A stretch of DNA of 64,000 bases. Origin: Nitrospirota bacterium. Its GTDB lineage: Bacteria > Nitrospirota > UBA9217. Under the pieces are notes generated by a model, which did not search any database, had not been told where the DNA came from, and saw nothing but the letters and a program-made list of their open reading frames with translations. The stretch is from assembly GCA_963663225.1 (NCBI GenBank), contig OY760142.1:3136001-3200000 (forward strand). Reading direction: 5' to 3'. The translations under genes and the position numbers were made by a program. Of the stretch, positions 1 through 50,038 are shown in pieces; positions within the stretch are counted from its first letter, which is position 1, and the number at the start of each line of letters is the position of its first letter.

Positions 1-747
1 GCCAATTCAGACACGTACGACAGTATCGACAATACGGGGACCATTACCCATACGGCGGTAAGCAATGGGGCCGCACAACCTTCCCTTCCGGCAAATTCTA
101 TGTGGCTGCAAAAGGTAGTTACCAACGCAACCCAGGCTACAGCCTTTACCGATTTAAGAAACTTGACCACCAATGAGCCGGCCGTCACGATAAATTCAAT
201 ACGAATTCAAAAGGTAGTGGCTGACTCATCAAAAATACAGTCCGTGATTGATTATCGAACGCTCAATAAGCCTATTTTGTCAAGGCCGGCGTATCGCGGG
301 GCATTGGTACGCAGAACGACAAACCAAACTCTCACCGTTGGTGGATACACAACGGTTGATTGGGAAGCAGAGGTTAGAGATACCGATAATATTCACAACG
401 CAAGCTTAAACACAACAAGACTTACTGTTCCAGCAGGAGCTTCTAAGGTAAGGCTTAGATTTAATGGTTATATTGCTCATGGCGGAACCCCGAACGGAAC
501 GGCGGCAGCTTACCTATATAAAAATGGTGGAAGTAATTATGTTGGGGCTTGCTGCGATATTATTTACCCTTCGCAATACTCAGGGGCCATTTTTACCCCG
601 CTTATAGTGTCACCTGTGCTTGACGTTATTCCTGGTGATTTTTTTGAAATAGTAGTTGTGGGAGCCTCCGGGTCTACTTCTGCAACTTTAAGAGGTGGAG
701 GGGACGGGACGTATTCCGCTTTCTTTGAAATGGATATTGTTGAATGA
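1..747 (+). CDS. Tail fibre/tail-associated protein, C-terminal part (5' truncated by window)
   Basis: Frame is open from base 1 into ORF 100..747; Thr/Gly-rich beta-type sequence (DTDNIHNASLNTTRLTVPAG) like phage tail/C1q-like C-terminal domains. Confidence 0.6.
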   Translation, partial: ANSDTYDSIDNTGTITHTAVSNGAAQPSLPANSMWLQKVVTNATQATAFTDLRNLTTNEPAVTINSIRIQKVVADSSKIQSVIDYRTLNKPILSRPAYRGALVRRTTNQTLTVGGYTTVDWEAEVRDTDNIHNASLNTTRLTVPAGASKVRLRFNGYIAHGGTPNGTAAAYLYKNGGSNYVGACCDIIYPSQYSGAIFTPLIVSPVLDVIPGDFFEIVVVGASGSTSATLRGGGDGTYSAFFEMDIVE

Positions 748-986
748 AGTTGCTTTCCTTACTGTCTGGACCGCTCGACGCTCGGGACCGGGATATTTTA
801 AATCAAGTCCTTCGAGCGCAATGGTGGATCAATCCCCTGCTGAACCCGGAATGCGGGAAGGTAGAGCCGGAGCCGAAATACGTGCGAATGGTGGCCTATG
901 CGAACGGAACGGATTGGAACCCCGGGGGAAATGGCGTGGTGGGATATTACCGATGGACCGGGACGGCCTGGGTATATGTGGGGTGA
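744..986 (+). CDS. Small phage structural-module protein
   Basis: ATGA overlap with upstream stop; YANGTDWNPGG...YYRW motif resembles small podovirus tail-region proteins. Confidence 0.6.
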   Translation: MKLLSLLSGPLDARDRDILNQVLRAQWWINPLLNPECGKVEPEPKYVRMVAYANGTDWNPGGNGVVGYYRWTGTAWVYVG

Positions 987-988
987 AT

Positions 989-1447
989 ATGAGATTAATA
1001 CCTTACGAATATAAGCATAATGCCCGCCTCATGGAAATTTATAAAATAACCGAGCCGTGGGTTGAGTTTCACCGAGCAAAGTTTGACGCATGGTTTGCCG
1101 GCAGAGAAGGATTTGTATTGGTTTCAAGCTGCGGCAAGATAGTTGGGGCCATCACGTTCACAAATTATCAGCCGAATTCTGATATTACAATTCATTGCTC
1201 TGTTCTTCCTGAATACCAAAAACGGTGGCTGACAAAATCCATATACAAGCAGGTATTTGACGTACCGTTTGTAAAATTGGGGCTTGAACGCTGCAGCGGG
1301 TTTATTATCGACGGTTGCACTCCAAGAGGGTTTCACGAAAGACTTGGATTTAAATATGAAGGAACTTTAAGAAGGTCCATAAGGGTACAAGGCGAATACA
1401 GGGATGTTCACCTGTACGGCATGACCAAGGATGAAAGACGATGGTAA
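989..1447 (+). CDS. GNAT (RimJ/RimL-like) acetyltransferase-fold protein of the ejection module
   Basis: ATG at 989 just after upstream stop; motifs VFDVPFVKLGLERC and FHERLGFKYEGTLR; occupies the slot before ejection proteins seen in podoviruses. Confidence 0.8.
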   Translation: MRLIPYEYKHNARLMEIYKITEPWVEFHRAKFDAWFAGREGFVLVSSCGKIVGAITFTNYQPNSDITIHCSVLPEYQKRWLTKSIYKQVFDVPFVKLGLERCSGFIIDGCTPRGFHERLGFKYEGTLRRSIRVQGEYRDVHLYGMTKDERRW

Positions 1448-2466
1448 AACGGGTTCTCTTCTGTTTCTATGCAATACCGCTGCATTATAACCACGGGGTA
1501 GCGCTCCTGTCTCGCCTGTGCAAAGACGCTGGCATAGAAGTGGATATTTATATGCCTGAGGACCTTTACCTATTTCAAGAAAAATTGAGAAGCAAAAAAT
1601 ACGACCTTGTTGGATTTTCTATTTCCATACTGAAAGACTTTAATCTGTGCAAGCCTTATATAGATTTGGCTTTGAGAAACGGCAATGAGGTTGCGCTTGG
1701 AGGCACGTTCTTTCGGCGCAACAATCCTAATGAGTATGATGGACGTTGTTTTATCTGTCGGGGAGAAGGTGAACTGTTGCCAGAATTTATTTTGCATGGT
1801 GATGAAACAATATTTAATACCCGTTTCGTAAACCCTGACATTGAGAGCCTACCCCTTCCAGATTTTGAAGCTCCTATGCGGTACGACGGTGACATACCGA
1901 GATTCAAGCCGAGAAAGATGGTGCCCTACTATGCCAGCCGCGGATGTATCGGTAAATGCAACTTCTGCGACGTACAGCATCAGACGGGGGTTGTGCGGAT
2001 CCGGCGTAAAGCCAAAGAGGATATGCAGAATATCGTTAATATCCATTCTCCGGAAATGATTTTTATAGGCGACGAAACGGCACCCTACTACGACGACGGA
2101 TGGCGTGAGTCCTGGGAAGATTTCAAATTCCCATTTTACGCCTACATTCGAGCCGACATACCGAAGGAAACTCTTTTATGGCTTATTGAACGCGGCATGG
2201 TTGGGTGCGCGTTCGGCGTTGAGAGCGGAGATGAGGCGTACCGAAATGATGTGCTTGGCAAAAACCTGTTTGATCGGGATATTTATAGAACCGCTGAAAT
2301 TCTTAGGCAACACAATCGTCACTTCGTCCATTTCTACATGACAGGGACAAGAGGGGAAACGAACGAATTGAAATACAAGACAATAAAATTTATGGAAAGC
2401 ATCGGGGGCTATCCTGTGCTTTTTGGATACACAGAGGTGAAACACGATTTAAGGAAGGGGGCATAA
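1441..2466 (+). CDS. B12-binding-domain radical SAM protein
   Basis: SRGCIGKCNFC (CxxxCxxC); N-terminal DLVGFS..LGG..RGEGE cobalamin-binding-type motifs; FGVESG. Confidence 0.85.
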   Translation: MVKRVLFCFYAIPLHYNHGVALLSRLCKDAGIEVDIYMPEDLYLFQEKLRSKKYDLVGFSISILKDFNLCKPYIDLALRNGNEVALGGTFFRRNNPNEYDGRCFICRGEGELLPEFILHGDETIFNTRFVNPDIESLPLPDFEAPMRYDGDIPRFKPRKMVPYYASRGCIGKCNFCDVQHQTGVVRIRRKAKEDMQNIVNIHSPEMIFIGDETAPYYDDGWRESWEDFKFPFYAYIRADIPKETLLWLIERGMVGCAFGVESGDEAYRNDVLGKNLFDRDIYRTAEILRQHNRHFVHFYMTGTRGETNELKYKTIKFMESIGGYPVLFGYTEVKHDLRKGA

Positions 2467-2467
2467 A

Positions 2468-3568
2468 ATGTCTATTGCCATTATAGGCGCTGTTTGTGCG
2501 GTTGGATCTTTGGGACTTGGTATTTATAGCGCTGTCGCCGGCGGGGGTGGTTACAGTTTTGGCGGGACTTCTGTGCCGGCAAATATGATTACTTACGACG
2601 AGAACGGAAACGTATCTCAAGAAGTTATATGGAACGCATCAAAACAGGCGTACGAACAAAAGTCTTATCCTTATGGCAAGGCTCCCGACAAGCCGGCCGC
2701 CCCTACCGCTCCCGATCAGACGCAATATTATGCGAAGGACCAAGACGGAAATTATATACTCGATAAGAACGGGCAGGCTACAGTAGATCAGGCCACTTGG
2801 AATAACGCACAGGCACAGTACCAGATTGAATTAAAAAAATACAACGAAGAAACCCTTCCTCAATGGGAAAAGGATAATGCTACTTGGGTTAAAGCAAAAT
2901 CCGAGTACGAGGCCGACAAGGCTCTTACCGATGAAATTTTAAAAAATAAAAAAACATCTCTTAATATGAGTTGGGAGGAGCGTGTTTCTCATTACAACGA
3001 ATATGCAGATGATTTTGTAAAGCAGCAACACGCCATTCTTGATCCTCAGTTTGAGAAAGAGAAACAAACCGTTGCAGAATCAATGGCATCGCGAGGCATG
3101 ACCGGATCAAGGGCGGAGGTAGACACTAACGCTGAACTTGAAAAGGCAAAATCAAAATCAGACGAAGAGGTTTCCACAAATGCAAATATGTATAAATACG
3201 CCCTTGCGAATCAGGAATTGCAGGGAGATTTAAGTATATACAACGCTATAAAAGCCGGCCAAGGGGCTGATACTGCGCTTGCCCTACAGAAGCAGACCGC
3301 GGGAGTCCAGGGGGCAGTATTGGGCACACAAGCATCATTGGCAAGCACAACTGCCGCAAACAACGCATCTTATCAATCGTGGCTGTCAAATTACCTAGTG
3401 AACCAAAGCCGGTCTAAAAGCTTAACGGATACCGCCTCCGGCTTGGCGTACCTGTACGGATACGGGAAAAAGGCGGGATGGTGGAGCCCTGCGAATTCTG
3501 GTGGCGGGTCTGGTGTTTTAAGCAACTCTACTTCTGGTTATTTACCAGCAACGGCGGATATTGGATAA
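2468..3568 (+). CDS. Putative DNA-ejection/pilot (internal virion) protein
   Basis: Hydrophobic Gly-rich N-terminus, Ala/Gln-rich helical body, ASRGMTGS motif; position after GNAT. Confidence 0.6.
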   Translation: MSIAIIGAVCAVGSLGLGIYSAVAGGGGYSFGGTSVPANMITYDENGNVSQEVIWNASKQAYEQKSYPYGKAPDKPAAPTAPDQTQYYAKDQDGNYILDKNGQATVDQATWNNAQAQYQIELKKYNEETLPQWEKDNATWVKAKSEYEADKALTDEILKNKKTSLNMSWEERVSHYNEYADDFVKQQHAILDPQFEKEKQTVAESMASRGMTGSRAEVDTNAELEKAKSKSDEEVSTNANMYKYALANQELQGDLSIYNAIKAGQGADTALALQKQTAGVQGAVLGTQASLASTTAANNASYQSWLSNYLVNQSRSKSLTDTASGLAYLYGYGKKAGWWSPANSGGGSGVLSNSTSGYLPATADIG

Positions 3569-3578
3569 GGAGATAATC

Positions 3579-4415
3579 ATGGCCTCTCTTGCAAGCATTT
3601 TTGCGAAACCGAACTCAGGCGTAAGCGATAGCGATGCAACAAACAGATTATTAAGCGCGAGGGCGGGAGTTACCAATACCACGATGAACATGATACCGCG
3701 TTCTGGTTTTGCCGCCCCTCTTGTGTCTGGACTGCTTGGGTATCAGACTGCGGGGCAAGAAATTGATGCTGAAGGGCAAAAGAAAATGACAGATTTCTTG
3801 TCTACGTTTCAAAAGCTCTCCAGGGTAAGCAAGCTGATGGCCGTGAAGTTTTTTAACGAGAACGGCCCCGAAGTAGGAATTGATGCACCGATAGATGGGG
3901 TTGAGTCACAGCCTGATATTACGTCGGCCCACTTTAAAGACGGCCACATTGTCGGACTTGGTATGGACGGAATTTATATGCCTGGACCGGATGGGAAATG
4001 GACACCTGCTACATCTGACTTTCTAGACCAGTTAAGACAAGATAATCTTACAAAAAAGAAGTCAAGCGGCGGGTCCGGAAGCACAGAAAAACGCACAACG
4101 GTATTAAATTCGTATACCAACATAAATCAAAAAATTATTTCAGCAACAAATAATATGGTTGGCCAGACGGCAACGCAAAAAGTACAGACTCAAGCCGTTA
4201 TTGATGACCTTGTTCGTCAAAAAAAGAATATGGAAAAATTGTACCCTTGGCTTGTCGATAAATCTGCCGCACCGACAGGAGAAGTCGCCCCCGCACCGCC
4301 CGCACCAGCGCCGGCAGCCAATAATAACGACACGCTCGGCAGCATACTGAAAAGATTACAGCCAAACTATACCCAAAGCCCCTTACAAGCTGACGATAAT
4401 GGACTGTATAAATGA
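3579..4415 (+). CDS. Putative second ejection (internal virion) protein
   Basis: AAGGAG RBS before ATG 3579; lies between pilot-like gene and giant protein; Pro/Ala linker. Confidence 0.55.
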   Translation: MASLASIFAKPNSGVSDSDATNRLLSARAGVTNTTMNMIPRSGFAAPLVSGLLGYQTAGQEIDAEGQKKMTDFLSTFQKLSRVSKLMAVKFFNENGPEVGIDAPIDGVESQPDITSAHFKDGHIVGLGMDGIYMPGPDGKWTPATSDFLDQLRQDNLTKKKSSGGSGSTEKRTTVLNSYTNINQKIISATNNMVGQTATQKVQTQAVIDDLVRQKKNMEKLYPWLVDKSAAPTGEVAPAPPAPAPAANNNDTLGSILKRLQPNYTQSPLQADDNGLYK

Positions 4416-7400
4416 GCGAATGGGACGACATTATTGCAGACAAGAGATTTATTGATCTGCCCGACGAGGACAAGCAGAAGGTTGCCGATATTTATTTTAA
4501 CGATAAGATTGTAACCGATAGACGTTGGAGTGAATTGGACCAGGCGACACAGGATCAGGTACGCACCGAATTTATGAAGTCTGTTTCCCCTGCCCCCATA
4601 CAGCAATCCGTTCCGGCTACAGTATCGTCCATGCCGTCCACGGCTTTGATTACGAAAGGCCCCGAGGATATATACTCCTCATTCGGTAGTGGCGTTAATA
4701 CGGCTGCGGCGACTATGGCCAAAGGCATGGATTCTATTGCGACGTATATAAGCGAGAAAACCGGATTACCAAAAGGCGGACTATTCGAAAAAGCAGCAAA
4801 GGAATATGAATCAAACGCCGCATATTGGAACCAGAAGATTAAGGAGAACGGTGTTGATGCGATCACGCAGATTGTAGGCAAAGCTGCCGGCGGAGCGGTC
4901 CCCGGTCTTGCAGATTTTGCGTTAGGACCAGCGTATTACGGCGTAAAGGGCGCGGCGGAAGCCGGAAATAAGGGTGAATCAGAAGCGTGGGGCGCTTTCA
5001 AAGGGGCGTCAGAGCGGTACATTACCGGCAGAGTTCTTGAAGCGCTGAATATGCTTAAAATGGCGTACCGTATCCCTGGTATGGGCGGACTTGGCGCCGC
5101 ACAAGCGACCGTAGAGGGCGGAGATGTGGCCGAAAGCGCCGGCACCATGGCGCTGTATGGCATCATGGGTCCGCGTGGGGGAATGGGCCCAAAAGACGTT
5201 GTGAGAGAGTTTAAATCTTCGATGGCAACGGGAGAGGGCACACCGGCCCCTATCCCTGAACCTCCCGCCGGTCCTCCTCCTACCGGCGGGGCTCCTAATG
5301 AAACCGCGCAGGGCGGCGAACGACGTACGAATCAAACGCTCCGCGATATGATATCAGATTATGAAACACGCGCAGTCGGCGGCGACAGAGAATCATTGCA
5401 GCATCTTATTGACTCCGGAGTTTGGGGCGATCCTCTTACCGGGCTCCTGAATAAAAACGGAATAGAAAAAATGAGGCCAGCCGTCGATGCGAAGCCGGAT
5501 AAATTTTATCTCGACCTCGACAACTTTAAGCAGATTAACGACAAGCTTACTCATGCCGGAGGCGATCAGATAATTTCCGAAGTCGGCAAAAAAATGCGCG
5601 AGATTTTTTCTGAGGACGATATTGCCGCACGGCATGGCGGGGATGAGTTTTCCGGAGGCGGGACAGCGCTTGCAGGAAAACTCGAACGATTGAGAAGTGA
5701 CCTTGAAAATGCTATAATTCAAATCAGAATACCAAAGGGCTCGGAGTTTCCTAAAGATAGCGGAAACATTCTGCAGAACGATCTTGTCCTTGAGCAGCCG
5801 GGTATAAGGTTGTCTTTTGGTGTTGGGAAAACGAATGAGGAGGCTTACAATGCGAACACCGCAAATAAAAGTGAAAGGCTTAAAGCTGGCCTCCGTACCG
5901 AACGCAACAAAGCGGCTTCCGACGTTGGGACAGCTGTCGAAGATATTACCAAAGGGATCCAAGTTCCTGGGGATCAAGTGGCCAGAGGCAGCCAAAGCGC
6001 CACAGCTACCGCAGATAGACCAGCAACAGCCGGAAGAATAGAATTACCTACCCCTGAGAAAATCACTCATAATCCGAACGCTGCAGACAATAAGTGGCCT
6101 TCTGGTAAATTTCGAGAACACGCCCCATTCTCCGAAGAGGACAAAGGTTGGCTTAACGATCTTCGCTCTCTCATCGCCGGTATTGAAGCGCCCGGCAAGC
6201 TTAACCCGAACGGAACAGTATCAACCTCTACCCTGCCCCCTCACCTGAGAAGCCTTGGACTGACCAAAGCCGATTATGACGTTGTGAATATGGCTTCTAA
6301 GGGCGAGCCTATTACCTGGAACCAGTACGTTAAAATTCAATCTTGGGTTGAAGAGCATAAAGTTGCGTTTGGCTTCCGGCCGGGTGAAGGATGGCCAAAG
6401 CCAGAGGATTTTTTTAAAGACGACTTTGTGACCGATGAAGAAGTGCCTTTTGAACGCGGGGCTCCCGGCGATTTTAAACTTACTCCGGACGAGCAAAAAC
6501 CACAAAAACAGAAGCCGCAACAGCAGGGCCTTAACCTTGGTATGAAGGGCGAAGATATGAGAGCGCCCAAAAAAGAGGGTCCGGGCGTTACGATGGATGA
6601 AACAGAGCTTGGCAAGGCCACGAACGCGGCCAAGGACCGCGAGGCGCAAGAGCGGCTATTTGACGCATCAAACTATGATCCGGCTGCAGTTCATTCCGAA
6701 ATGGAAATGCCGGAGATTGTGCAGCTGGTCAAAAAATTAACCGACCGATATCCTCAAGTCAACAAAGGCAAGATATCCGTGGCCATTGGGAAGGCCATAG
6801 GTTTTTTCGAGCCGTCAACCCGTCGCATTGTAATTTCGAATCACCTGTCAGAATTTGAAGGCTTGGCAGAGCGCGTCTTGGCGCATGAGCTTGGCCATGC
6901 CGTAGACTTCTCCGGCGCTCCGGGTAACGAAACAATGAGCCGCGGCAATATCCTTGGACGCATTGCATCACTCCGAAAGTATATGCAAGACCTTCTCGAA
7001 GAGCACCCTGGGGCAACCGAGGGCATACTTACTGATGCGGACCGAGCCCGGTTCGCGAAGGAAGCCGAGAGAATGGCAAAAGAGGAACAGGCTGGTCGGC
7101 AAGAAAGTGGCGGCACGGTCCCGCCCGAGGATATTCTTGCCATTTGGCGCGATGCGAGTGCGCGGGATAAAAACAAGGACCTGTACGACTATATTGCAAA
7201 GCTGTCCGCTGCGGAAAAGTCCAAAATCGTCAAGGACGCCATGAAGGGCATATCAAATATCACCCTGCGGGATCAGATTGCCGGCGGACATTACGAGCGC
7301 CTTGCACAGCGCGAGAAGGAAATATACCAAGACCTGCTCCGCCAGGAAATCATTAAACGGCGTCTGTATGAAAAAGAAACCATCATGGACGAGTTGAAAA

Positions 7401-10249
7401 AACTCACTCAAATAATCAAGCCGTTCGATGATGGCATAAACCCCGCAATTACGAAATACCGCTATTCTTCGCAAGAACTGTACGCCGATGCCGTATCACA
7501 GTTGCTTGTCGATCCTTCCCTACTCAAGAACACCGCCCCGACATTTCATAAGGCGTTTATGAGTTACCTTGAACGGAAGCCGGATTTTAAAGCCGAATGG
7601 GACCGGCTGCAGGATCTTGCCAAGGACCGCGAGGATATTCTATCTGAACGCCAGCAAAGAACATACGAGGGATATAAAGAACAAGAGGATTTGATTGCAG
7701 AGAACAGCAAGGAGCGCAAAATTCCGCTCATGCACGAAGTATTTAAGGCCCTGGTTGAGAAGAACGCGGATCTTTACGAAAAGGTAAAAGAAGTAAAGCG
7801 GCGCGACGGCGTTATTGAAGATACCAAAAACCCTCGCTACTGGACTGAACAATTACCGTATATAAATGGCCCCGTATTTACGTTTCTGCATGATGTGAAT
7901 GGCAAGGTAATGAACATTTCCAAGAAGCACAATATTACCCTTGATCAAATCGGAGAAATTTTCGAGCGGATGAGGGTTTCGACAGAACGGAAGAACATAC
8001 CGAACCCCGGCGGAATGACCGAGAAAACATCATTGGACGCCCTGGGAAAGTTAAAAGCAGATTTGGGGCCGGAGAGATTTGACGCTTTAAAGAAGGCCTA
8101 TGATGATTTTCAGTCTGCTTGGCAAAAACACGTTGTCGACAAAGTGCGGGAAGCTAATATGTGGAGCAAGGAACTGCAGGAATACGCCGAGAAAAACCTT
8201 AACTATGCCACCTTCCAGCACGTTCGGGAGTTTACCGGGAAACTCGAAGAACAAATAGGATACGAGAACAGCGCCAGGGTTTTTAAGCAGGTAGGCACAT
8301 TCGCGGAAATTCGCAACCCCTTTGTGGCCACCATTATGAAGGGCATGGCATTAGTGCGCGCTGCCGAAATTAACATGGCTAAAAAGGCAACCACGGATTT
8401 TTTGCTTAGAAACTTCGGGTCCGACACCATTCAAAAGGCAAAAGGCCGCTTTAATGGCAAATTCATGGAGTTTAAGAACGTGGACAGCGAAAAGGTCGGG
8501 ACCATCGTTTACATGGAAGAGGGAAAACTTCATGCCTATTACGTTCCGAAAGGAATAGCTGAATCGTTTGAGCGCGAGCCGCATATGGCGCAAATGATCA
8601 TGCGCGTATGGAATTTGATGAACGTGCCAATTCGCAATATCCTCGTTAGCCGCAATCCCCTCTGGATGGCGTTTAACGTGCCAAGAGACTTTATCGAAAC
8701 ATGGAAAAATACTCCGGACCTTACCATGTTCAAATTATTGCAGCGGTACGCCCAGGCCGTGCCTCATGCGTATAAAGAGGCATTTAAGGGAGAGCTTACG
8801 CCGACGGTTCGCAAGATGTACGAGAACAAGGAGCTTGTTATAGAGCGACATTTCCGGACGCTCGAAACCGACGATCCCATGAACGAGCTTAAAGATACTA
8901 TGCGGTCCTTTGGGCTGGCCCCGCAGCGGTACAACAATATCGTCTTAAAACCACTCAAAGCATTGTGGGACTTCCTTGGCAATACGGGGAAGTTTACAGA
9001 ACGGCTTGGCAAGGTTGCCGGATCCATAGAACTGCAGGAGCGGGTGAACCGTGGAACCATGGGACAAATGGAGAAGGCGCACCGCGTTAGACAACTGGTA
9101 GGCACTCCCGATATTCATGCTGGCGGATATTTAAAGCCGTTTTACAATAATATTTTCCTCTTCTCCAACGTGGCGATGAGAGGCTTCTATGCTTCGTATG
9201 AGGCATTTAGGGCCCGGCCGGTCGACTATCTGTGGAAAACAACGAAGTACAATGTAATGCCAAAATTGGTCATGGCTGCAGCTGCGGCCGGATTGCTCGG
9301 TGATGAGTTAAAGAAAATATATGCGGGGGTTTCTGAATACTACAAGACGAATTATCAGGTTATACCTCTTGGTCTTACCGAGAAGGGGAAGAGCGTTATT
9401 ATAACCCTTCCGCAAGACTACGCCGGCACGGGCATAGGGGCATTGGTTTGGAAGGCGTCTCAAGGGAAGTGGGTCGGTAAAAAAGGAATGACCGCGGCTA
9501 TGGTCCAGCAAACGCCGTATAGCTTTAATCCCCTGCTTAAAGTTGGCGCGGACTTGGCAAACTACCTTTCCGCGTCCCAGGTCTACGATGATTACAGGGG
9601 GAAAACGGTAATTTCCGACACCGAGGCGAAGGCTGCGGATTGGCATACCGCAATAAAGCTGGCAAAGTACGAGGCCGGACAGCTTGGGGCGAACGCTGTC
9701 TATCGGTTTGAATATGACGATCCTGCCCGCGTGAAATCGGACTTGGAAAAAATGCTCGACTATCCGCCCGGAAATGTTATTGGCAGATATCTAAAGGTGA
9801 CGGATTACGGGAACAGAGAGCAGCTTGAAGAGGTGACGGATCCTGTACAGCAAAAGGCCGCGCGAAGAACACTAAAAATAAACGACAAGATTAAAGACAG
9901 CATCCGTGAGTCCGGCGGCAAGTATGACGAAAAGAACATAGAGGACTTGTACGAGAAATTAAGAAACGATGGAACTCTTGAGCCGGGAGCCTCCGGATCA
10001 ACATTCAGGCAATTTAAGGCGAAGTACAACCGGTTTGCAGAGGGAAGATTTGACAATTACAAAATAGACGCCTTTGTGAAGGCGACAACAAGCGATGAAA
10101 AAGCCGCGCTGCTGAGTCACTATAAAGACATTATGCCGGCCAAAGAGTATGACGCCCTGTATGATCAGCTTATCGAAGAGGGTTTTTTAAAACGAGGGAC
10201 CGTGAAGTCTCTGAATCGAATGAACGAAAGGGAGGGCAGCAAGAAATGA
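4412..10249 (+). CDS. Large polyvalent/internal virion protein with GGDEF domain, zincin-like HEXXH domain and LPD38-like C-terminus
   Basis: 1945 aa; DPLTGLLN..DLDNFKQIND..HAGGD..RHGGDEF (GGDEF at 5636-5650); AHELGH (HELGH 6884-6898) plus later QELYADA; last gene before the lysis cassette. Confidence 0.8.
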   Translation: MSEWDDIIADKRFIDLPDEDKQKVADIYFNDKIVTDRRWSELDQATQDQVRTEFMKSVSPAPIQQSVPATVSSMPSTALITKGPEDIYSSFGSGVNTAAATMAKGMDSIATYISEKTGLPKGGLFEKAAKEYESNAAYWNQKIKENGVDAITQIVGKAAGGAVPGLADFALGPAYYGVKGAAEAGNKGESEAWGAFKGASERYITGRVLEALNMLKMAYRIPGMGGLGAAQATVEGGDVAESAGTMALYGIMGPRGGMGPKDVVREFKSSMATGEGTPAPIPEPPAGPPPTGGAPNETAQGGERRTNQTLRDMISDYETRAVGGDRESLQHLIDSGVWGDPLTGLLNKNGIEKMRPAVDAKPDKFYLDLDNFKQINDKLTHAGGDQIISEVGKKMREIFSEDDIAARHGGDEFSGGGTALAGKLERLRSDLENAIIQIRIPKGSEFPKDSGNILQNDLVLEQPGIRLSFGVGKTNEEAYNANTANKSERLKAGLRTERNKAASDVGTAVEDITKGIQVPGDQVARGSQSATATADRPATAGRIELPTPEKITHNPNAADNKWPSGKFREHAPFSEEDKGWLNDLRSLIAGIEAPGKLNPNGTVSTSTLPPHLRSLGLTKADYDVVNMASKGEPITWNQYVKIQSWVEEHKVAFGFRPGEGWPKPEDFFKDDFVTDEEVPFERGAPGDFKLTPDEQKPQKQKPQQQGLNLGMKGEDMRAPKKEGPGVTMDETELGKATNAAKDREAQERLFDASNYDPAAVHSEMEMPEIVQLVKKLTDRYPQVNKGKISVAIGKAIGFFEPSTRRIVISNHLSEFEGLAERVLAHELGHAVDFSGAPGNETMSRGNILGRIASLRKYMQDLLEEHPGATEGILTDADRARFAKEAERMAKEEQAGRQESGGTVPPEDILAIWRDASARDKNKDLYDYIAKLSAAEKSKIVKDAMKGISNITLRDQIAGGHYERLAQREKEIYQDLLRQEIIKRRLYEKETIMDELKKLTQIIKPFDDGINPAITKYRYSSQELYADAVSQLLVDPSLLKNTAPTFHKAFMSYLERKPDFKAEWDRLQDLAKDREDILSERQQRTYEGYKEQEDLIAENSKERKIPLMHEVFKALVEKNADLYEKVKEVKRRDGVIEDTKNPRYWTEQLPYINGPVFTFLHDVNGKVMNISKKHNITLDQIGEIFERMRVSTERKNIPNPGGMTEKTSLDALGKLKADLGPERFDALKKAYDDFQSAWQKHVVDKVREANMWSKELQEYAEKNLNYATFQHVREFTGKLEEQIGYENSARVFKQVGTFAEIRNPFVATIMKGMALVRAAEINMAKKATTDFLLRNFGSDTIQKAKGRFNGKFMEFKNVDSEKVGTIVYMEEGKLHAYYVPKGIAESFEREPHMAQMIMRVWNLMNVPIRNILVSRNPLWMAFNVPRDFIETWKNTPDLTMFKLLQRYAQAVPHAYKEAFKGELTPTVRKMYENKELVIERHFRTLETDDPMNELKDTMRSFGLAPQRYNNIVLKPLKALWDFLGNTGKFTERLGKVAGSIELQERVNRGTMGQMEKAHRVRQLVGTPDIHAGGYLKPFYNNIFLFSNVAMRGFYASYEAFRARPVDYLWKTTKYNVMPKLVMAAAAAGLLGDELKKIYAGVSEYYKTNYQVIPLGLTEKGKSVIITLPQDYAGTGIGALVWKASQGKWVGKKGMTAAMVQQTPYSFNPLLKVGADLANYLSASQVYDDYRGKTVISDTEAKAADWHTAIKLAKYEAGQLGANAVYRFEYDDPARVKSDLEKMLDYPPGNVIGRYLKVTDYGNREQLEEVTDPVQQKAARRTLKINDKIKDSIRESGGKYDEKNIEDLYEKLRNDGTLEPGASGSTFRQFKAKYNRFAEGRFDNYKIDAFVKATTSDEKAALLSHYKDIMPAKEYDALYDQLIEEGFLKRGTVKSLNRMNEREGSKK

Positions 10250-10581
10250 TCATTTTCGGGCGCAGACTGAAAGACAACTGGTTAATGAAAATTTTGATTA
10301 TTCTTTTCTTTGCCGTTACTCCGGTGGTAGTCCTGGGCGCTGCGAACCCGTCACAAGCGGTCATTGCTTACCCTACTCCTTCGTGGATTGATCATATTGA
10401 TGTGGTCAGGGCCTTGATTGGCGGACTATTCGCGATAATAGGTTTTTTTGTCGTGAGGCTGTTATTAAAATTTGACAGGAATAATAGCGAAATTTTCCGA
10501 CGGCTGAAAGAAGTAGAATCAAAACACGCTTGGCTTGAAGGATATTGCGCGGGGCAGCACGGACGAAAGAAAGAAGGTTGA
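10246..10581 (+). CDS. Holin-like/membrane protein of the lysis cassette
   Basis: Two hydrophobic segments plus short coiled C-terminus, directly upstream of the amidase. Confidence 0.5.
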   Translation: MIIFGRRLKDNWLMKILIILFFAVTPVVVLGAANPSQAVIAYPTPSWIDHIDVVRALIGGLFAIIGFFVVRLLLKFDRNNSEIFRRLKEVESKHAWLEGYCAGQHGRKKEG

Positions 10582-10583
10582 TA

Positions 10584-11069
10584 ATGCCGAAAAAAATAGA
10601 CAACATCATCATTCATTGCAGCGACAGCGTTTGGGGCTGCGCTCGGGAAATAAAACTCTGGCATACCCTTCCCCCGCCAGATGGCCGAGGCTGGTCTGAT
10701 ATCGGGTATCATTTCGTCATTCTGAACGGTCGAATTACTCCAAAACAAGAACTTTCTGCACTTGACGGCTGCGTTGAGTGTGGCAGGTATCTTGACGAGG
10801 ACGATATTATAGCGCCGTTCGAGATTGGTATTCATTGCCTGGGATACAATGACCACTCTATCGGAATATGCCTTGTCGGGAAAAGTCAATTCACGCAAAA
10901 CCAGATGGAATCGCTCAAGGACCTGTGCCTAGAGCTTTGCCAGCTGCATGAGATACCGGCTAACAATATCTTGGGGCATTGCGAAACCGTGAGCGGCCAG
11001 AAGGAAGGAAAGAGTTGCCCTAATTTCGACGTTGCGGAAATCAGGGAATATTTGAGAGGTGCGTTATGA
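10584..11069 (+). CDS. Endolysin, N-acetylmuramoyl-L-alanine amidase (Amidase_2, T7 gp3.5-like)
   Basis: IIIHCS, GWSDIGYHFVI, SIGICLVG, GHC..KSCPNF zinc-amidase motifs. Confidence 0.92.
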   Translation: MPKKIDNIIIHCSDSVWGCAREIKLWHTLPPPDGRGWSDIGYHFVILNGRITPKQELSALDGCVECGRYLDEDDIIAPFEIGIHCLGYNDHSIGICLVGKSQFTQNQMESLKDLCLELCQLHEIPANNILGHCETVSGQKEGKSCPNFDVAEIREYLRGAL

Positions 11070-11311
11070 ATTTTCTTAAATCAATCGCCCGATTCGTTGC
11101 AAAAGGCAAAACTGTAATGTTCGCTTACACGATGAGCATGATAGCCCTGTCCTGGTACGCGACGGTTGCTAAGACGCCGATTGACGGCAGCGTGGCGACG
11201 ATGTATAGCGCCGCCCTTGTTGCATACGCCGGTTCAAAAGGCCACGAACTTTACGAGGCGAACAAAAACAAAATAACTCTCAAGGAGGGAGAGATAAATG
11301 CGAGTGCTTAA
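11066..11311 (+). CDS. Holin-like small membrane protein
   Basis: 81 aa, two TM segments, charged C-terminus, follows endolysin. Confidence 0.55.
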   Translation: MNFLKSIARFVAKGKTVMFAYTMSMIALSWYATVAKTPIDGSVATMYSAALVAYAGSKGHELYEANKNKITLKEGEINASA

Positions 11312-28800: not shown

Positions 28801-28995
28801 ATGGAATCAGTCGAGCGCGAATTGCAGGAAATAAAAGCGGCCATTTTATCAATTGGCAATACGGTTACGGAGATAGCCTCTAATCTTGAACGCCATGGAA
28901 TAGGAGCACACAAAAAGGCTAACATCGTAGAAATAAAAGATTGGGCAAAAAAACAGGCGGAGCGTCATGTCAATAAAACCAGTAGGAAAAGATAA
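28801..28995 (+). CDS. Small protein overlapping integrase start (possible excisionase/directionality factor)
   Basis: Position only; no recognisable motif. Confidence 0.35.
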   Translation: MESVERELQEIKAAILSIGNTVTEIASNLERHGIGAHKKANIVEIKDWAKKQAERHVNKTSRKR

Positions 28996-30019
28996 GTGGG
29001 AGCTTGACATAAGCCTGGGCTACGTCGATGGCGCTCAACATAGAGTAAGGCGAATATTTTCAGGAACGCAAGAGAACGCCGTAATTGCTGAGATTGAACT
29101 TACCAAACAACTCGGAAAGCCTTCAGTAGAAAGAAAAAAAATTGAGGACTTTACAGAAGAATATCTTGAATGGGTTGGCAAATACCAGAGCGAAAAAACA
29201 TACCACGATAAAAAGAAAATGCTATTCGGCTATCTATTGCCCTTCTTTGGCAATATGCGGCCAGATTTCATAACAAAGAGCTTACTTGAAGCATACCAAA
29301 CCAGCAGACTAAACGCTCCAATAAAATTTTCGAAGCACGGAAAGCCATTAAAACAATACAAAAGGTCCCGCGCCGTTAATCTTGAAATACTCTGCCTGTC
29401 CTCAATGATTGAATGGGGAAGAGAACACGGATATTGCGTCGATCCTCTCGTAAAAATCAAACCACTACCGTATAAAAAACCGCTTCCAAGTGTATTGTCC
29501 GCTGAGGAAATAAAATCTTTTCTGTCTGAGTGTCCCCCTGTTTATAAAGCCTATCTTTTGGCCCTGTATCATTGCGGCATGAGAAAGAATGAGGCTAAAA
29601 ATTTAAAATGGACAGATGTAGATTTTGAACGCGGTATTATTCATATTATCGGAAAAGGCAACAAAGAGCGTATTGTGGGGTTGACGGATACGCTTAAAGA
29701 ATCTCTGCAGTCGTTACAGAGGGCCGATATTCGTGTTTTCGTTTCGCCGAGGACAAATATGCCGATTGGGGATATAAGAAAGACGATTGAATCGGCAAGA
29801 AAGCGCGCCGGGATCCAGCGGCACATAAATCCTCACCTACTACGGCATACTTTTGCAACTCATTTGCTTGAACTCGATGTTGATTTAAGGACCATTCAGG
29901 ACCTTCTTGGCCACGCCGATGTAAGCACAACCCAAATTTACACCCATGTTTCGATAAACAGGATATTGAGCGCAGCCAAAGCGCTTGATGAAGCGCTAAA
30001 GAAGAAAGGAATAGCATAG
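28967..30019 (+). CDS. int: Phage integrase (tyrosine recombinase)
   Basis: GMRKNE, GKGNKER, HLLRHTFATHLL, LGHADVSTTQIYTH; N-terminal arm-binding-type domain. Confidence 0.93.
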   Translation: MSIKPVGKDKWELDISLGYVDGAQHRVRRIFSGTQENAVIAEIELTKQLGKPSVERKKIEDFTEEYLEWVGKYQSEKTYHDKKKMLFGYLLPFFGNMRPDFITKSLLEAYQTSRLNAPIKFSKHGKPLKQYKRSRAVNLEILCLSSMIEWGREHGYCVDPLVKIKPLPYKKPLPSVLSAEEIKSFLSECPPVYKAYLLALYHCGMRKNEAKNLKWTDVDFERGIIHIIGKGNKERIVGLTDTLKESLQSLQRADIRVFVSPRTNMPIGDIRKTIESARKRAGIQRHINPHLLRHTFATHLLELDVDLRTIQDLLGHADVSTTQIYTHVSINRILSAAKALDEALKKKGIA

Positions 30020-30709: not shown

Positions 30710-30784
30710 TGGAGCCGGCGGTCAGGATTGAACTGACGACCTGCTGATTACGAATCAGCTGCTCTACCACTGAGCTACGCCGGC
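30710..30784 (-). tRNA. tRNA-Thr (anticodon CGT), prophage attachment site
   Basis: GCCGGCGTAGCTCAGTGGTAGAGCAGCTGATT-CGT-AATCAGCAGGTCGTCAGTTCAATCCTGACCGCCGGCTCCA; full cloverleaf with CCA. Confidence 0.97.
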
Positions 30785-46346: not shown

Positions 46347-46414
46347 TTTAGATTATTCACCTGTTGAAAGCTTTTTTCATTTAAGCGATATGATGTTTGA
46401 TGACGGAGGCAATA

Positions 46415-47878
46415 ATGCGTTTTAAACTGATCGTTCTGGGAGTAATTCTTTTATTGTCAGGGTGTTTTCATACGGTTAAAACAGGCGAGATAGCCCTCAA
46501 CCTTCAATCGGGTTCCGACCTTACGCTTGGCTTGTCGAAAAAGGATATTTCTGTTGCAGACACAAAATACAATTTTCATTCCCCTTTATTCATAAGCAAT
46601 TTACTCCTGGACACCCTGATGGCGGAATCAAACGGCCGGGTGGTGCCACCTGTAAATCAGCCGCTTTCGCTGTCGATTACCTACGACTTTCAACCTGAAT
46701 TTCAGCCTAACATTTTTATCGGAGTTACTTCACTCTTCATCCCCATACTCGGATTTATCCCCGAGTCAAATGAAGAGCGGTATCGCGTGGAATATGCCGT
46801 CAAGGACCCGCAGGGCACTGTAGTGTATCAGCGCTCCCTGGAAAACACAGTCGAGGGGAGCATAAAAGGATGGTATGTCGGGAGAATCGGCGCAGCTACC
46901 AATTTAAAGAAAGCCGAAGCTCTACTGGCGGCAAAAAACGCAGCGCGACTGGTTTTAAAAGACCTTGATGAACATTCAGGGAAAATCCTTGCCGCCGTTC
47001 GATCAGCCCGCATCCCCTCCACCGCATCCGGCAGACATTTTAATACAACTGCCGCACAGGACATTATTCGTAGCACTCCGCAAGAATCTCTTCCTTCTGC
47101 TGCCGCTGTCAGCTCTGATGTGGATGAATTGCCTTCAAAAAAAGCAAAGGCCAAAAATGCCTACGCCATCGTAATCGGCATTGAAACATATCGCCAGAAA
47201 CTGCCTCCCGCGGATTTTGCCGTTCGCGACGCCTCCACCATTACGGAGTATCTGACGAAAGTCCTCGGATATCCTGAAGAGAATGTCATAACGCTTCTGA
47301 ATGACAGAGCATTGCAAAGCGACCTTGCAAAATATTTTGAAAAATGGCTCCCGAACAATGTTGAGCAAGGCAATACCGTCTTTGTGTACTACTCAGGCCA
47401 CGGCGCTCCCAATCCGAAAACGGGAGACGCCTATCTTGTTCCGTATGATGGTGATCCGACATTTATTACCGAGACTGGATATTCATTGAAAAGAATGTAT
47501 GATGCTCTCGGAAAACTGCCGGCCAAGGAAATTATCATTGCTCTGGACTCCTGCTTTTCCGGTGCGGGCGGCAGATCGGTCATCGCCAAAGGTTCACGTC
47601 CCCTTGTCGTTAATCTTCAGACCAACATTGTCCTATCCAAAAACATGACGGTTTTATCCGCGTCCTCAGATGACCAAACAAGTTCTGCTTACGCTGAAAA
47701 AGGACATGGTTTGTTCACCTATTTCCTGCTCAAAGCAATCAAAAATGAAGATGTTGTGCGGAAAGATGGATCGCTCAAGATTGAGGATTTATATGATTAT
47801 CTCAAACCGCAGGTGGAGCGCGTCGCCAGAAAACAATACAACAATGAGCAAATGCCCCAGTTAATATACCCGAAGTGA
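46415..47878 (+). CDS. Caspase-family (peptidase C14) lipoprotein
   Basis: LSGC lipobox; YYSGHG and LDSCFSG catalytic dyad. Confidence 0.9.
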   Translation: MRFKLIVLGVILLLSGCFHTVKTGEIALNLQSGSDLTLGLSKKDISVADTKYNFHSPLFISNLLLDTLMAESNGRVVPPVNQPLSLSITYDFQPEFQPNIFIGVTSLFIPILGFIPESNEERYRVEYAVKDPQGTVVYQRSLENTVEGSIKGWYVGRIGAATNLKKAEALLAAKNAARLVLKDLDEHSGKILAAVRSARIPSTASGRHFNTTAAQDIIRSTPQESLPSAAAVSSDVDELPSKKAKAKNAYAIVIGIETYRQKLPPADFAVRDASTITEYLTKVLGYPEENVITLLNDRALQSDLAKYFEKWLPNNVEQGNTVFVYYSGHGAPNPKTGDAYLVPYDGDPTFITETGYSLKRMYDALGKLPAKEIIIALDSCFSGAGGRSVIAKGSRPLVVNLQTNIVLSKNMTVLSASSDDQTSSAYAEKGHGLFTYFLLKAIKNEDVVRKDGSLKIEDLYDYLKPQVERVARKQYNNEQMPQLIYPK

Positions 47879-47898
47879 TAGAAAACGGAACGCAAAAG

Positions 47899-49203
47899 AT
47901 GAAGACAAAATATATCAGTTTGCTTCTTTTTGCCGCAATAGTAACACTGACTACCGCCTGCGCTACCGTACCGCTGGCGCAGCAGGAATTGGATATCAGG
48001 GCAAAGAATATGACACCGCCGTCTAACAAGGCGCTGCTCTACGTTTACCGAAATGCCATATTTGTCGGTTCCGCTGTCGCCATGGATATCTATATTGATG
48101 GCAATTCCGTCGGCCAACTAGCGGAAAAGACTTACTTGGTAGTTGTGCTGGAGCCGGGTAAACACAAACTTTCCCAATATCGCGATGAATCAATCAGGGC
48201 AACAAATTACCATCCCCTTAATGTTAAGGCCGGCAATAAGTACTATGTAAGAGTCTCTGCAGCAGTTCCACCGAAGGAAACGCTGGTACTCGGCGGCCTC
48301 GAGAAAACCGATTTTTTAGCCGGTTACAGTCTGATTAATGAAAGTGAAGAACCGCTCCAGATAGTTTCAGGAAAGATCAAAGATCGGGATGTTCCTTCTT
48401 CTACTTCTACATCGTCGCTGCTTGCTCAAGCGTCAGCATCCGATATCGATGAACTCCCGCCGATAAAAACAGCTCAAAACAGAAATGCCTATGCCATAAT
48501 TATCGGAATCGAACACTATCGTCAGAAGCTTCCCCGAGCGGACTTTGCCGTTGCTGACGCAAATACTGTTGCGGCCTACCTTACCAAAGTGCTTGGCTAT
48601 CCGGAAGAAAATGTTGTGACACTTCTAAATGACAGGGCACTGCAAAGCGACTTGACAAAGTACTTTGAAAAATGGCTCCAGAACAACGCTGAAAAAGGAA
48701 GCACAGTTTTTATCTATTATTCAGGCCATGGTGCGCCAAGTATCAAATCTGGCGATGCCTTTTTAGTGCCGTATGATGGCGATCCCTCGTTCATTGAGCA
48801 AACCGGATACTCGCTGAAACGTCTTTACAAAAACTTGAGCACGTTGCCAGCAAAAGAGATTATTGTTGCCCTGGATTCCTGCTTTTCCGGTGCAGGCGGT
48901 AGGTCGGTCATCGCCAAAGGTTCGCGTCCCCTTGTCATGAATCTTCAAACCAACGTTGTACTGCCCAAAAATACGACAGTGCTTTCCGCATCATCCGGTG
49001 ATCAGACAAGCTCTGCGTACGAAGAAAAGGGACATGGACTATTCACGTATTTCATGCTTAAAGGAATTAAGACTGAAAACATCGTTGCTCAGGACGGCTC
49101 CATAAAAATAAGCGATCTGTTTCACTACATCAAACCCAATGTAGAGCGCATCGCAAGGAAGCACTATAATACGGAGCAGACACCACAACTGATCAGCCAG
49201 TAA
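47899..49203 (+). CDS. Caspase-family (peptidase C14) lipoprotein with DUF2846-like N-domain
   Basis: TACAT lipobox; KALLYVYRN..IYIDG..EPGKH; YYSGHG and LDSCFSG. Confidence 0.9.
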   Translation: MKTKYISLLLFAAIVTLTTACATVPLAQQELDIRAKNMTPPSNKALLYVYRNAIFVGSAVAMDIYIDGNSVGQLAEKTYLVVVLEPGKHKLSQYRDESIRATNYHPLNVKAGNKYYVRVSAAVPPKETLVLGGLEKTDFLAGYSLINESEEPLQIVSGKIKDRDVPSSTSTSSLLAQASASDIDELPPIKTAQNRNAYAIIIGIEHYRQKLPRADFAVADANTVAAYLTKVLGYPEENVVTLLNDRALQSDLTKYFEKWLQNNAEKGSTVFIYYSGHGAPSIKSGDAFLVPYDGDPSFIEQTGYSLKRLYKNLSTLPAKEIIVALDSCFSGAGGRSVIAKGSRPLVMNLQTNVVLPKNTTVLSASSGDQTSSAYEEKGHGLFTYFMLKGIKTENIVAQDGSIKISDLFHYIKPNVERIARKHYNTEQTPQLISQ

Positions 49204-49219
49204 AAAAATAGGAGTTTGG

Positions 49220-50038
49220 ATGAAAAAAATATTTTTCTTATGCTGTATCATGCTTATAATCCCCCTAACCGGTCTTGCGACGGAAAAACCGGTCTGGGTC
49301 GAGGCAACGGGAGAATCTCAGCTCGGTGATACAGATACTCTGAAAGAAGTGAAGGACAGAGCAAAACGCGATGCCCAGAGCAAGGCGGTCGAAAAAGCGG
49401 TCGGTACCTTCATCAAGTCACACACGCTGGTCTCAAACTTTCAACTTGCCGATGATCTGATTTATGCGGCTGTTCGCGGAAAAATTGAAAAATCAGAAAC
49501 TCTGCAGGAAGGCTGGGATGAAAAGGATCGCAACCTATACCGCGTCAGGATCAAAGCCCTCGTTGATCCTGTTTATCCGGGAAAAGATCATGGCTTTTCT
49601 CTGAAAATCGCAATGTCCAAAAACATACTAAAAGAAGATGAAGAGGTCAGAATATTCTACCAATCCAGCAGAGAGTGCTACGTTTACATTTTTTCAATCG
49701 CTGCGGATGGATCCGTAACCGTGCTTTTCCCCAATTCTGTGAACAAAGACAATCATCTTCTGCTTGATAAAGCCTATGAATTTCCGCCTGCCGGCAGTCC
49801 TCTCAAATTAAAAGCCAGCTTCCTGCCTGATTTTAAAGGAAAAACAGCGGAAGAGCGGATTAAAATCATTGCCACGGCCAGAGAGGAGGCCATTGTTCCT
49901 CTGGGATTTCAGGAGGGTATGTTCAAAATGTATGATGCAAAATCAACGGGCATGATCAGCGATCTGGCCAGAAAACTGAACCAGATTGATCCCGCGGAGT
50001 GGACGGAAGCAACGGCAACTTACAAAATTGTGCGATAA
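49220..50038 (+). CDS. Exported protein with FlgT-N/LPP20-like and DUF4384-like domains
   Basis: WVEATG..AKRDA..AVEKAVG; CYVYIFSIAADGSVTVLFPN. Confidence 0.7.
   Translation: MKKIFFLCCIMLIIPLTGLATEKPVWVEATGESQLGDTDTLKEVKDRAKRDAQSKAVEKAVGTFIKSHTLVSNFQLADDLIYAAVRGKIEKSETLQEGWDEKDRNLYRVRIKALVDPVYPGKDHGFSLKIAMSKNILKEDEEVRIFYQSSRECYVYIFSIAADGSVTVLFPNSVNKDNHLLLDKAYEFPPAGSPLKLKASFLPDFKGKTAEERIKIIATAREEAIVPLGFQEGMFKMYDAKSTGMISDLARKLNQIDPAEWTEATATYKIVR

Follow-up and report, generated by a model that had tools for sequence, protein, structure and literature searches.

A GGDEF domain of a phage-specific clade in a giant polyvalent protein of a Nitrospirota prophage, a candidate diguanylate cyclase for delivery at infection

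The combination of a GGDEF domain and a zincin-like metallopeptidase (MPTase) in one giant late-gene protein was predicted computationally in 2017 by Iyer, Burroughs, Anand, de Souza and Aravind (PMC5512222), with Acetonema longum WP_004096050.1 as the example. These authors described GGDEF domains as 'not very widespread' in polyvalent proteins, and proposed for them a role in interference with host nucleotide responses or in action against rival elements. Here we analyse a protein of this kind, 1945 amino acids (aa) long, which is encoded by a prophage in the 3.26-Mb, one-contig genome of a Nitrospirota bacterium, within a stretch of 64,000 nucleotides (G000:C1:3136001-3200000, hereafter the window). 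Its architecture and proposed role are already in print, and it is simpler than the published example, with no SNF2, methylase or ART match. What our sequence comparisons add to the 2017 prediction is a phage-specific clade of GGDEF domains, which includes stand-alone proteins of YuA-like phages. This clade, its Arg-rich ERR motif and the YuA link are not described in the discussion of GGDEF domains by Iyer et al., the supplements of which may hold more, and we found no description of them in a literature search that covered neither those supplements nor most subscription journals. The best overall explanation of the locus, which we put just short of an even chance, is an ejected polyvalent GGDEF protein of a temperate podovirus that makes cyclic di-GMP (c-di-GMP) on infection.

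Other described systems are close to this one. Protein gp47 of phi24B, a giant protein with LPD38 and metallopeptidase regions from a temperate podovirus whose structural module is of GP4 type, has been detected in virions by proteomics and was proposed to be an ejection protein (bioRxiv 10.64898/2026.04.10.717836). The likeness is one of described features; gp47 is larger (2811 aa), and in the relevant section of the bioRxiv text no GGDEF domain is reported for it. The YIP peptides of PB1-like phages raise host c-di-GMP (De Smet et al., PMC8085984). Unlike the route proposed here, this demonstrated manipulation involves no phage enzyme, and takes place after expression through activation of the host cyclase YfiN. 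A GGDEF protein of phage YuA is mentioned in a review (PMC10333796), and lysogens of phage LK3, which encodes such a protein, were reported to form more biofilm, in a Bordetella phage study that also mentions the YuA protein and describes no gene-level test (PMC8471281).

From profile matching and structural modelling, we conclude that the GGDEF domain of the giant protein is real and not a chance resemblance, and that its predicted fold is complete, which confirms the assignment in a preliminary description of this locus. The Pfam GGDEF profile (PF00990) matches with an E-value of 1.9e-13; the score is 50.9 bits and the cut-off 23.8. The match is limited to aa 340–413 (profile positions 4–84 of 161), since the second half of the domain belongs to a divergent phage type. 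For aa 296–509, an AlphaFold2 model based on a 46-row alignment has a mean predicted local distance difference test (pLDDT) score of 89.8 and contains every core strand and helix. The best structural matches of the model are canonical cyclases, with 3ign as the best solved match (Z 16.2, 135 residues, 1.6 Å) and PleD (2v0n) matching over 137 residues at 2.1 Å. The motifs quoted in the preliminary description are all in frame: D340 of DPLTG at 5429, the metal-binding D368 at 5513, the Asn/Asp pair N376 and D385 at 5537 and 5564, the GGDEF signature, IRLSFGVG at 5804–5827, and SEDD in place of RxxD. Together with K373 (at 5528), the metal, guanine and signature residues D368, N376, D385 and G409–F413, which have canonical roles in PleD-type cyclases, are all kept.

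Compared with the cellular cyclases DgcR, PleD, WspR and Dcsbis, the domain is alike in its fold (Z 15–16 and a root-mean-square deviation of 1.6–2.1 Å over 131–137 residues, for isolated cores), its catalytic residues and a helical stalk before DxLT. It differs by the lack of a sensor domain and of an RxxD inhibitory site (I-site), by a rebuilt last helix and by changed cross-dimer residues. Since cyclases with coiled-coil linkers are known (PMC8041772), the two predicted helices ahead of the DxLT turn are regarded as a candidate dimerization stalk. The open reading frame (ORF) is supported by reads: two runs from one sample, possibly the source, cover window positions 3400–11100 unbroken and with zero differences, and the short pieces listed from a second study, including one at 5660–5810, show zero differences to the ORF as well. 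No RNA dataset with this sequence was listed, and run X6 contributed no reads.

A C-terminal motif, the ERR motif and tree placement indicate that the domain belongs to a phage-specific clade. With a profile built from six domains, namely the window copy and five from viral contigs, 653 of 1.84 billion representatives score E 1e-30 or better, and all clade counts rest on the best 150 of these 653, which represent at least 150 distinct clusters at 50% identity. Residues D368, N376, G410, D411, E412, G470 and K486 are present in all 150, R489, G493 and R495 in 147–149, and a full nine-residue set in 123, although these invariance counts are biased upward, as the 150 were chosen by the score of a profile that holds the same residues. 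The window copy keeps every one of the residues named, at an identity of 24–33% to the six family domains. The C-terminal motif K..[RK]...G.R occurs in 146 of the 150 members and in none of 43 cellular domains. Clade members are mostly long (112 have at least 1000 aa); all 13 long members that were scanned match GGDEF, most show polyvalent-protein families, and none has a sensor or EAL domain.

In a quick tree, phage and cellular GGDEF domains are separated with a Shimodaira–Hasegawa-like approximate likelihood ratio (SH-aLRT) support of 98.7. Its 87 rows are domain cores, drawn from one in four of the 150 clade members, seven members of the family, two YuA-type proteins, 14 of the host's 16 domains and 26 further cellular domains. 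The window copy is the first branch on the phage side, with a long branch of 1.41. Scored by halves, the C-half of the domain reaches 38.4 bits with the phage profile versus −0.9 with the cellular one, and the N-half 50.7 versus 74.9. These scores and the half-trees suggest a mosaic origin from a cellular N-half and a phage C-half, although constraint tests were non-discriminating (approximately unbiased test, p-AU 0.90 and 0.73). Recent capture from the host lineage was rejected, as the matches in 40 related genomes were all partial, centred on the N-half and at most 52% identical, with no close donor among them. A search among long proteins with the GGDEF region alone proved useless for the clade, 40 of its 41 matches being cellular sensor cyclases that match the domain partly. 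A viral scan with alignment A2 gave mostly partial matches, which were kept out of the counts, and the ESM Atlas returned generic GGDEF clusters only. A 114-kb viral contig carries a stand-alone GGDEF protein of 231 aa and cellular type (L001:7884-8579).

The clade extends to YuA-like phages. When one clade domain served as tblastn query against annotated phages, the search gave 50 records, including 40 Pseudomonas and 9 Bordetella phages, and the two records inspected hold stand-alone GGDEF genes of YuA-like phages (MP1412_43, AFN39614.1, and Bordetella phage CN1, APL99421.1). These proteins have the K..R...G.R motif, lack the I-site and fall on the same side of the tree, and a YuA-type GGDEF protein is the second-best viral structure match of our model. 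They differ from the window copy in being short (about 155 aa) and unfused, in lacking the ERR motif and the beta-hairpin, and in their position among non-structural genes; their cores are 33–37% identical to it. In both records the GGDEF gene directly precedes a KlcA-type antirestriction gene (L092:2525-2995 and L093:1513-1971).

The sequence of the giant protein, with GGDEF and MPTase in one chain encoded among late virion genes, identifies it as a phage-type polyvalent protein. A search with aa 760–1830 yielded a scaffold set of 115 proteins, including the window protein, among 8000 scored candidates; a single-protein scan found no carriers of this scaffold among named genomes. E1022 (at 7475) is a candidate third ligand in addition to the conserved HExxH motif (Table 1), and Pfam peptidase matches to the MPTase region are weak and below the cut-off. 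The scaffold relatives carry InPase, ART-PolyVal, ddrB-type, RadC, SNF2 and LPD38 families. Of the earlier designation as an LPD38-type protein, a direct Pfam detection did not materialize, with no match on the window protein at E up to 1, but an LPD38-like region could be mapped through the relative P0060, in which, as in P0108, LPD38 is present.

The survey of GGDEF frequency among such relatives, suggested in the preliminary description, detected an intact domain (PF00990) in 7 of the 115 scaffold proteins, and the module thus appears dispensable. Custom profiles revealed a divergent GGDEF-type domain in four more (P0044, P0068, P0074 and P0083); this type has an NL-G/K-x-N motif and GGDE or GDE, falls under the Pfam cut-off, and might represent another cyclase family. 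A FastTree phylogeny of 109 of the 115 rows, six having been dropped for short alignments, implies at least five gains or losses of the intact domain. The window protein lies in a five-member branch of this tree, every member of which has a GGDEF-type domain. From aa 701 onwards, proteins P0043 and P0044 are 87–100% identical in each 100-aa bin, but they are 13–18% identical over aa 301–700, the slot in which they hold different GGDEF types. The patchy presence and this swap indicate that the GGDEF module is an effector cassette which is optional and exchangeable and occupies a variable slot. A coupling to pyrophosphatase inside the scaffold family was rejected: InPase occurs in 7 of the 115 proteins, and these do not overlap with the 7 that have GGDEF.

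As judged from its residues, the window copy is likely, though not certain, to be enzymatically active. An active dimeric cyclase fits with two features of the clade. Nine of the 150 members have two GGDEF domains per chain, a possible built-in dimer (P0158, P0160, P0161, P0165, P0168, P0169, P0170, P0172 and P0250), and 36 have a pyrophosphatase domain, 22 of these within 100 aa. We mapped the cross-dimer residues by motif spacing, with DgcR numbers taken from PMC8041772; by this inferred mapping D183 and H187 of DgcR are kept as D377 and H381, and Y286 corresponds to T483, at a position that is variable across the clade too.

Several points weigh against the overall explanation. The window copy misses 17 of 59 clade-conserved columns, which equals the worst of the score-picked 150; its scaffold relatives P0042, P0043 and P0046 miss 16, 17 and 14. 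The cross-dimer Arg (R147 of DgcR), which is 94% conserved in predicted cyclases (PMC6456294), maps by the same spacing to K348, the next Arg, kept in 140 of the 150, is replaced by N349, and Y479 stands in place of the acidic residue of the helix (Glu or Asp in 148 of the 150, and D282 of DgcR by the inferred mapping). On their own, GGDEF domains mostly stay monomeric and show poor activity (PMC10333796), and the window protein has no pyrophosphatase domain. The rarity of the module among scaffold relatives and the upward bias of the invariance counts point in the same direction, and no experimental test of any clade member was found in the literature outside most subscription journals. The term 'apparently intact' in the preliminary description is therefore appropriate for the complete fold and the catalytic residues, and not for the missed columns and the two predicted cross-dimer residues that are changed.

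The alternative that survives best, although we consider it unlikely, is that the clade is active and the window copy weakened or decaying. Such a copy would still bind GTP or c-di-GMP, or yield a small amount of product, and would be carried along in a slot subject to frequent loss or replacement. The missed columns, the long branch and the repeated gains or losses in the scaffold tree are in line with this, as are N349, Y479, N482 and the SGGG strand, all rare or absent among the 150. Against it, every metal, guanine and phosphate residue has been spared, the model is confident across the core, and the four closest scaffold relatives all have a GGDEF-type domain.

If the window copy is active, its product is very probably c-di-GMP. 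The Ser or Thr of Hypr-type enzymes at the guanine-reading position is replaced here by D385, and Asp at this position together with GGDEF is the combination that turned GacA mutants into pure diguanylate cyclases (PMC6456294). For this reason c-di-GMP is favoured over cyclic GMP-AMP (cGAMP), as the preliminary description had argued. The guanine-reading Asp is replaced in 18 of the 150 clade members (Asn in 15, Thr in 2, Glu in 1), mostly in a KGDEF sub-branch, and these 18 are candidates for a different product. A different cyclic dinucleotide as the sole or an additional product of the domain in the window itself, which would jam nucleotide-signalling defence or act as its decoy, is improbable. 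Those replacements, the rebuilt C-terminal motif of the clade and the slot swaps between GGDEF types lend this idea some support, as do the shift in product ratios caused by a non-Arg cross-dimer residue in Hypr enzymes (PMC6456294) and the interference with host nucleotide responses raised by Iyer et al. (PMC5512222), but both the pairing of D385 with GGDEF and the canonical cyclases among the best structural matches speak against it.

The loss of the I-site, from which the preliminary description deduced an unregulated enzyme, is shared by the clade: RxxD, expected five residues before GGDEF, is found in 2 of the 150 members. As it is paired with a conserved Arg-rich motif of candidate function, the term unregulated is not retained. 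RRx[DN]xxxR precedes the stalk helix in 120 of the 150 members, and [DE]RRx[DN] is absent from 115 random control windows of the same proteins; a cellular control (0 of 43) is weak, since the upstream stretches are short. The motif may bind c-di-GMP and replace the lost I-site, or its arginines could alternatively serve the active site. A related element is the c-di-GMP-binding peptide of CleD, DRR-x11-(R/K)RxxD (Hee et al., PMC7382256), both halves of which are represented in the clade motif [DE]RRxD by its DRR-like and RxxD elements. The differences are that the strict CleD pattern occurs in 0 of the 150 members and a loose two-part version in 15, and that the window copy has a single ERRxN motif, with Asn for Asp, which is modelled as a helix, in contrast to the unstructured state of the free CleD peptide. 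The CleD-type Y-x-G-P-x-R-R was rejected as a clade feature, with only 2 occurrences in the 150.

By analogy with phi24B gp47, the giant protein is very probably packaged and ejected. We propose that it would be made late, packed in the capsid and ejected with the DNA. Two GGDEF modules would then pair through their N-terminal helices or the oligomeric scaffold, each module perhaps being freed by the protein's own metallopeptidase, and the observed residues and fold would allow the paired modules to condense two GTP into c-di-GMP before phage gene expression. Regulation would perhaps proceed via the Arg-rich motif instead of the I-site, and the pulse of c-di-GMP would act on a receptor-rich host, most plausibly on its pili, motility or surface structures. 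An action outside injection, by late expression or by MPTase cleavage before packaging, with c-di-GMP rising in the producing cell or lysogen, is doubtful at best: P1 DdrB is processed before packaging (PMC5512222), the stand-alone YuA-type genes lie among non-structural genes beside an antirestriction gene, and the LK3 lysogens were reported to form more biofilm (PMC8471281), but the GGDEF domain of the window is fused into a late structural-block protein, and the N4 virion RNA polymerase (vRNAP), which is also a polyvalent protein with an MPTase, is packaged intact (PMC5512222).

Targets for c-di-GMP exist in the host, as its genome has 16 other GGDEF, 26 PilZ and 6 MshEN matches. A PilB with an N-terminal MshEN region is encoded beside pilT and pilC, about 9 kb to the left of the prophage (G000:C1:3110323-3112164, minus strand). 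At high c-di-GMP levels PlzR is induced, and PlzR in turn blocks phages that depend on pili, YuA among them (PMC11461919). In view of this effect and the YIP precedent, superinfection exclusion through pili is a plausible purpose of the ejected cyclase we propose.

The features of the locus are listed in Table 1. The prophage is about 45.4 kb long and integrated at tRNA-Thr, and window bases 1 to about 30700 are its right part; the tRNA-Thr boundaries and the integrase correct the preliminary description, which speaks of a phage. Genes for a terminase, a portal protein (Pfam SU10_portal), a GP4-type gp80 protein and a major head protein lie upstream of the giant gene, and no tape-measure gene was found in the structural block, which fits a podovirus-type phage. 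A 111-aa ORF and the amidase gene follow downstream, in agreement with the earlier placement of the giant ORF as the largest gene before lysis in a podovirus-type module.

Some further observations concern the same region. Two genes inside the structural block, one acyltransferase-like and one for a B12-binding radical SAM protein (window 695-2466, plus strand), lie between the tail genes and the presumed ejection genes. Going by the coordinates, the long contig of run X3 would stop on the final 30 bases of the left-hand tRNA copy (G000:C1:3121346-3121375), a hint of an empty attachment site or of another organism's tRNA; the X1 contig runs through. A sigma-70-like site (11/12 with TG, one of 34 such sites genome-wide) lies within the GGDEF coding sequence at window 5690-5718 (plus strand) and was not used as evidence. 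On the host side, at window 46397-50038 (plus strand), two neighbouring genes encode caspase-like (Peptidase_C14) domains and a DUF4384 gene comes next.

Table 1. Features of the giant protein gene and its prophage. Coordinates are window positions unless a genome position (G000:C1) is given.
Feature	Position	Strand	Basis
Giant polyvalent protein, 1945 aa; probable internal virion (ejection) protein	4412..10249	+	ORF; 115-protein scaffold set; last large structural-block gene before lysis
Two predicted helices (aa 301-322, 326-334) ahead of the DxLT turn; candidate dimerization stalk	5312..5413	+	AlphaFold2 secondary structure
Arg-rich N-terminal motif E303-R304-R305-x-N307-xxx-R311, hallmark of the phage GGDEF clade; candidate nucleotide-binding site	5318..5344	+	Motif counts
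GGDEF domain core, aa 340-498	5429..5905	+	Pfam; AlphaFold2 model; match to solved cyclases (Z up to 16.2)
I-site position, SEDD, no RxxD	5609..5620	+	Sequence
GGDEF signature (G409-F413), then atypical SGGG strand with 3-residue deletion	5636..5650	+	Sequence; strand still modelled
Beta-hairpin insertion, 14 residues, almost wholly absent from 150 clade members	5744..5785	+	Alignment; second-study read piece without differences
Clade C-terminal signature K486-xx-R489-xxx-G493-x-R495-xx-R498, replaces cellular AKxxGR motif	5867..5905	+	Motif counts
HExxH (H825-H829) of zincin-like MPTase	6884..6898	+	[AS]HExxHxxD in 109/115 relatives
LPD38-like region, aa 1636-1776	9317..9739	+	Transferred from P0060 (LPD38 E 2.5e-6) via 33% alignment
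Two unannotated ORFs (366 and 284 aa), probable partner ejection proteins	2468..4415	+	No family matches; role from position only
Amidase endolysin	10545..11069	+	Pfam Amidase_2 E 7.6e-16
Prophage tyrosine integrase	28967..30019	+	Pfam Phage_integrase E 2.5e-38
tRNA-Thr(CGT), right attachment site	30710..30784	-	tRNA sequence at prophage boundary
Left attachment site, partial copy of tRNA-Thr	G000:C1:3121328-3121375		Sequence copy

The window locus, with its divergent copy, is a poor test object. The same clade is present in culturable YuA-like Pseudomonas phages, which makes its chemistry and phenotype directly testable, and the conserved ERR motif provides a concrete regulatory hypothesis. 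A broader reading of the family is somewhat unlikely to hold in full: phages may own a long-standing family of sensor-free dinucleotide cyclases, ejected in giant proteins or stand-alone in YuA-like phages, in which the I-site is replaced by an Arg-rich c-di-GMP-binding motif, the slot is a swap hotspot and some members make other products. If this reading were true, the second-messenger state of the host would be reset within seconds of infection. For the prophage described here, a protein that is both active and injected would mean that the phage sets a central host signal before expressing any gene.

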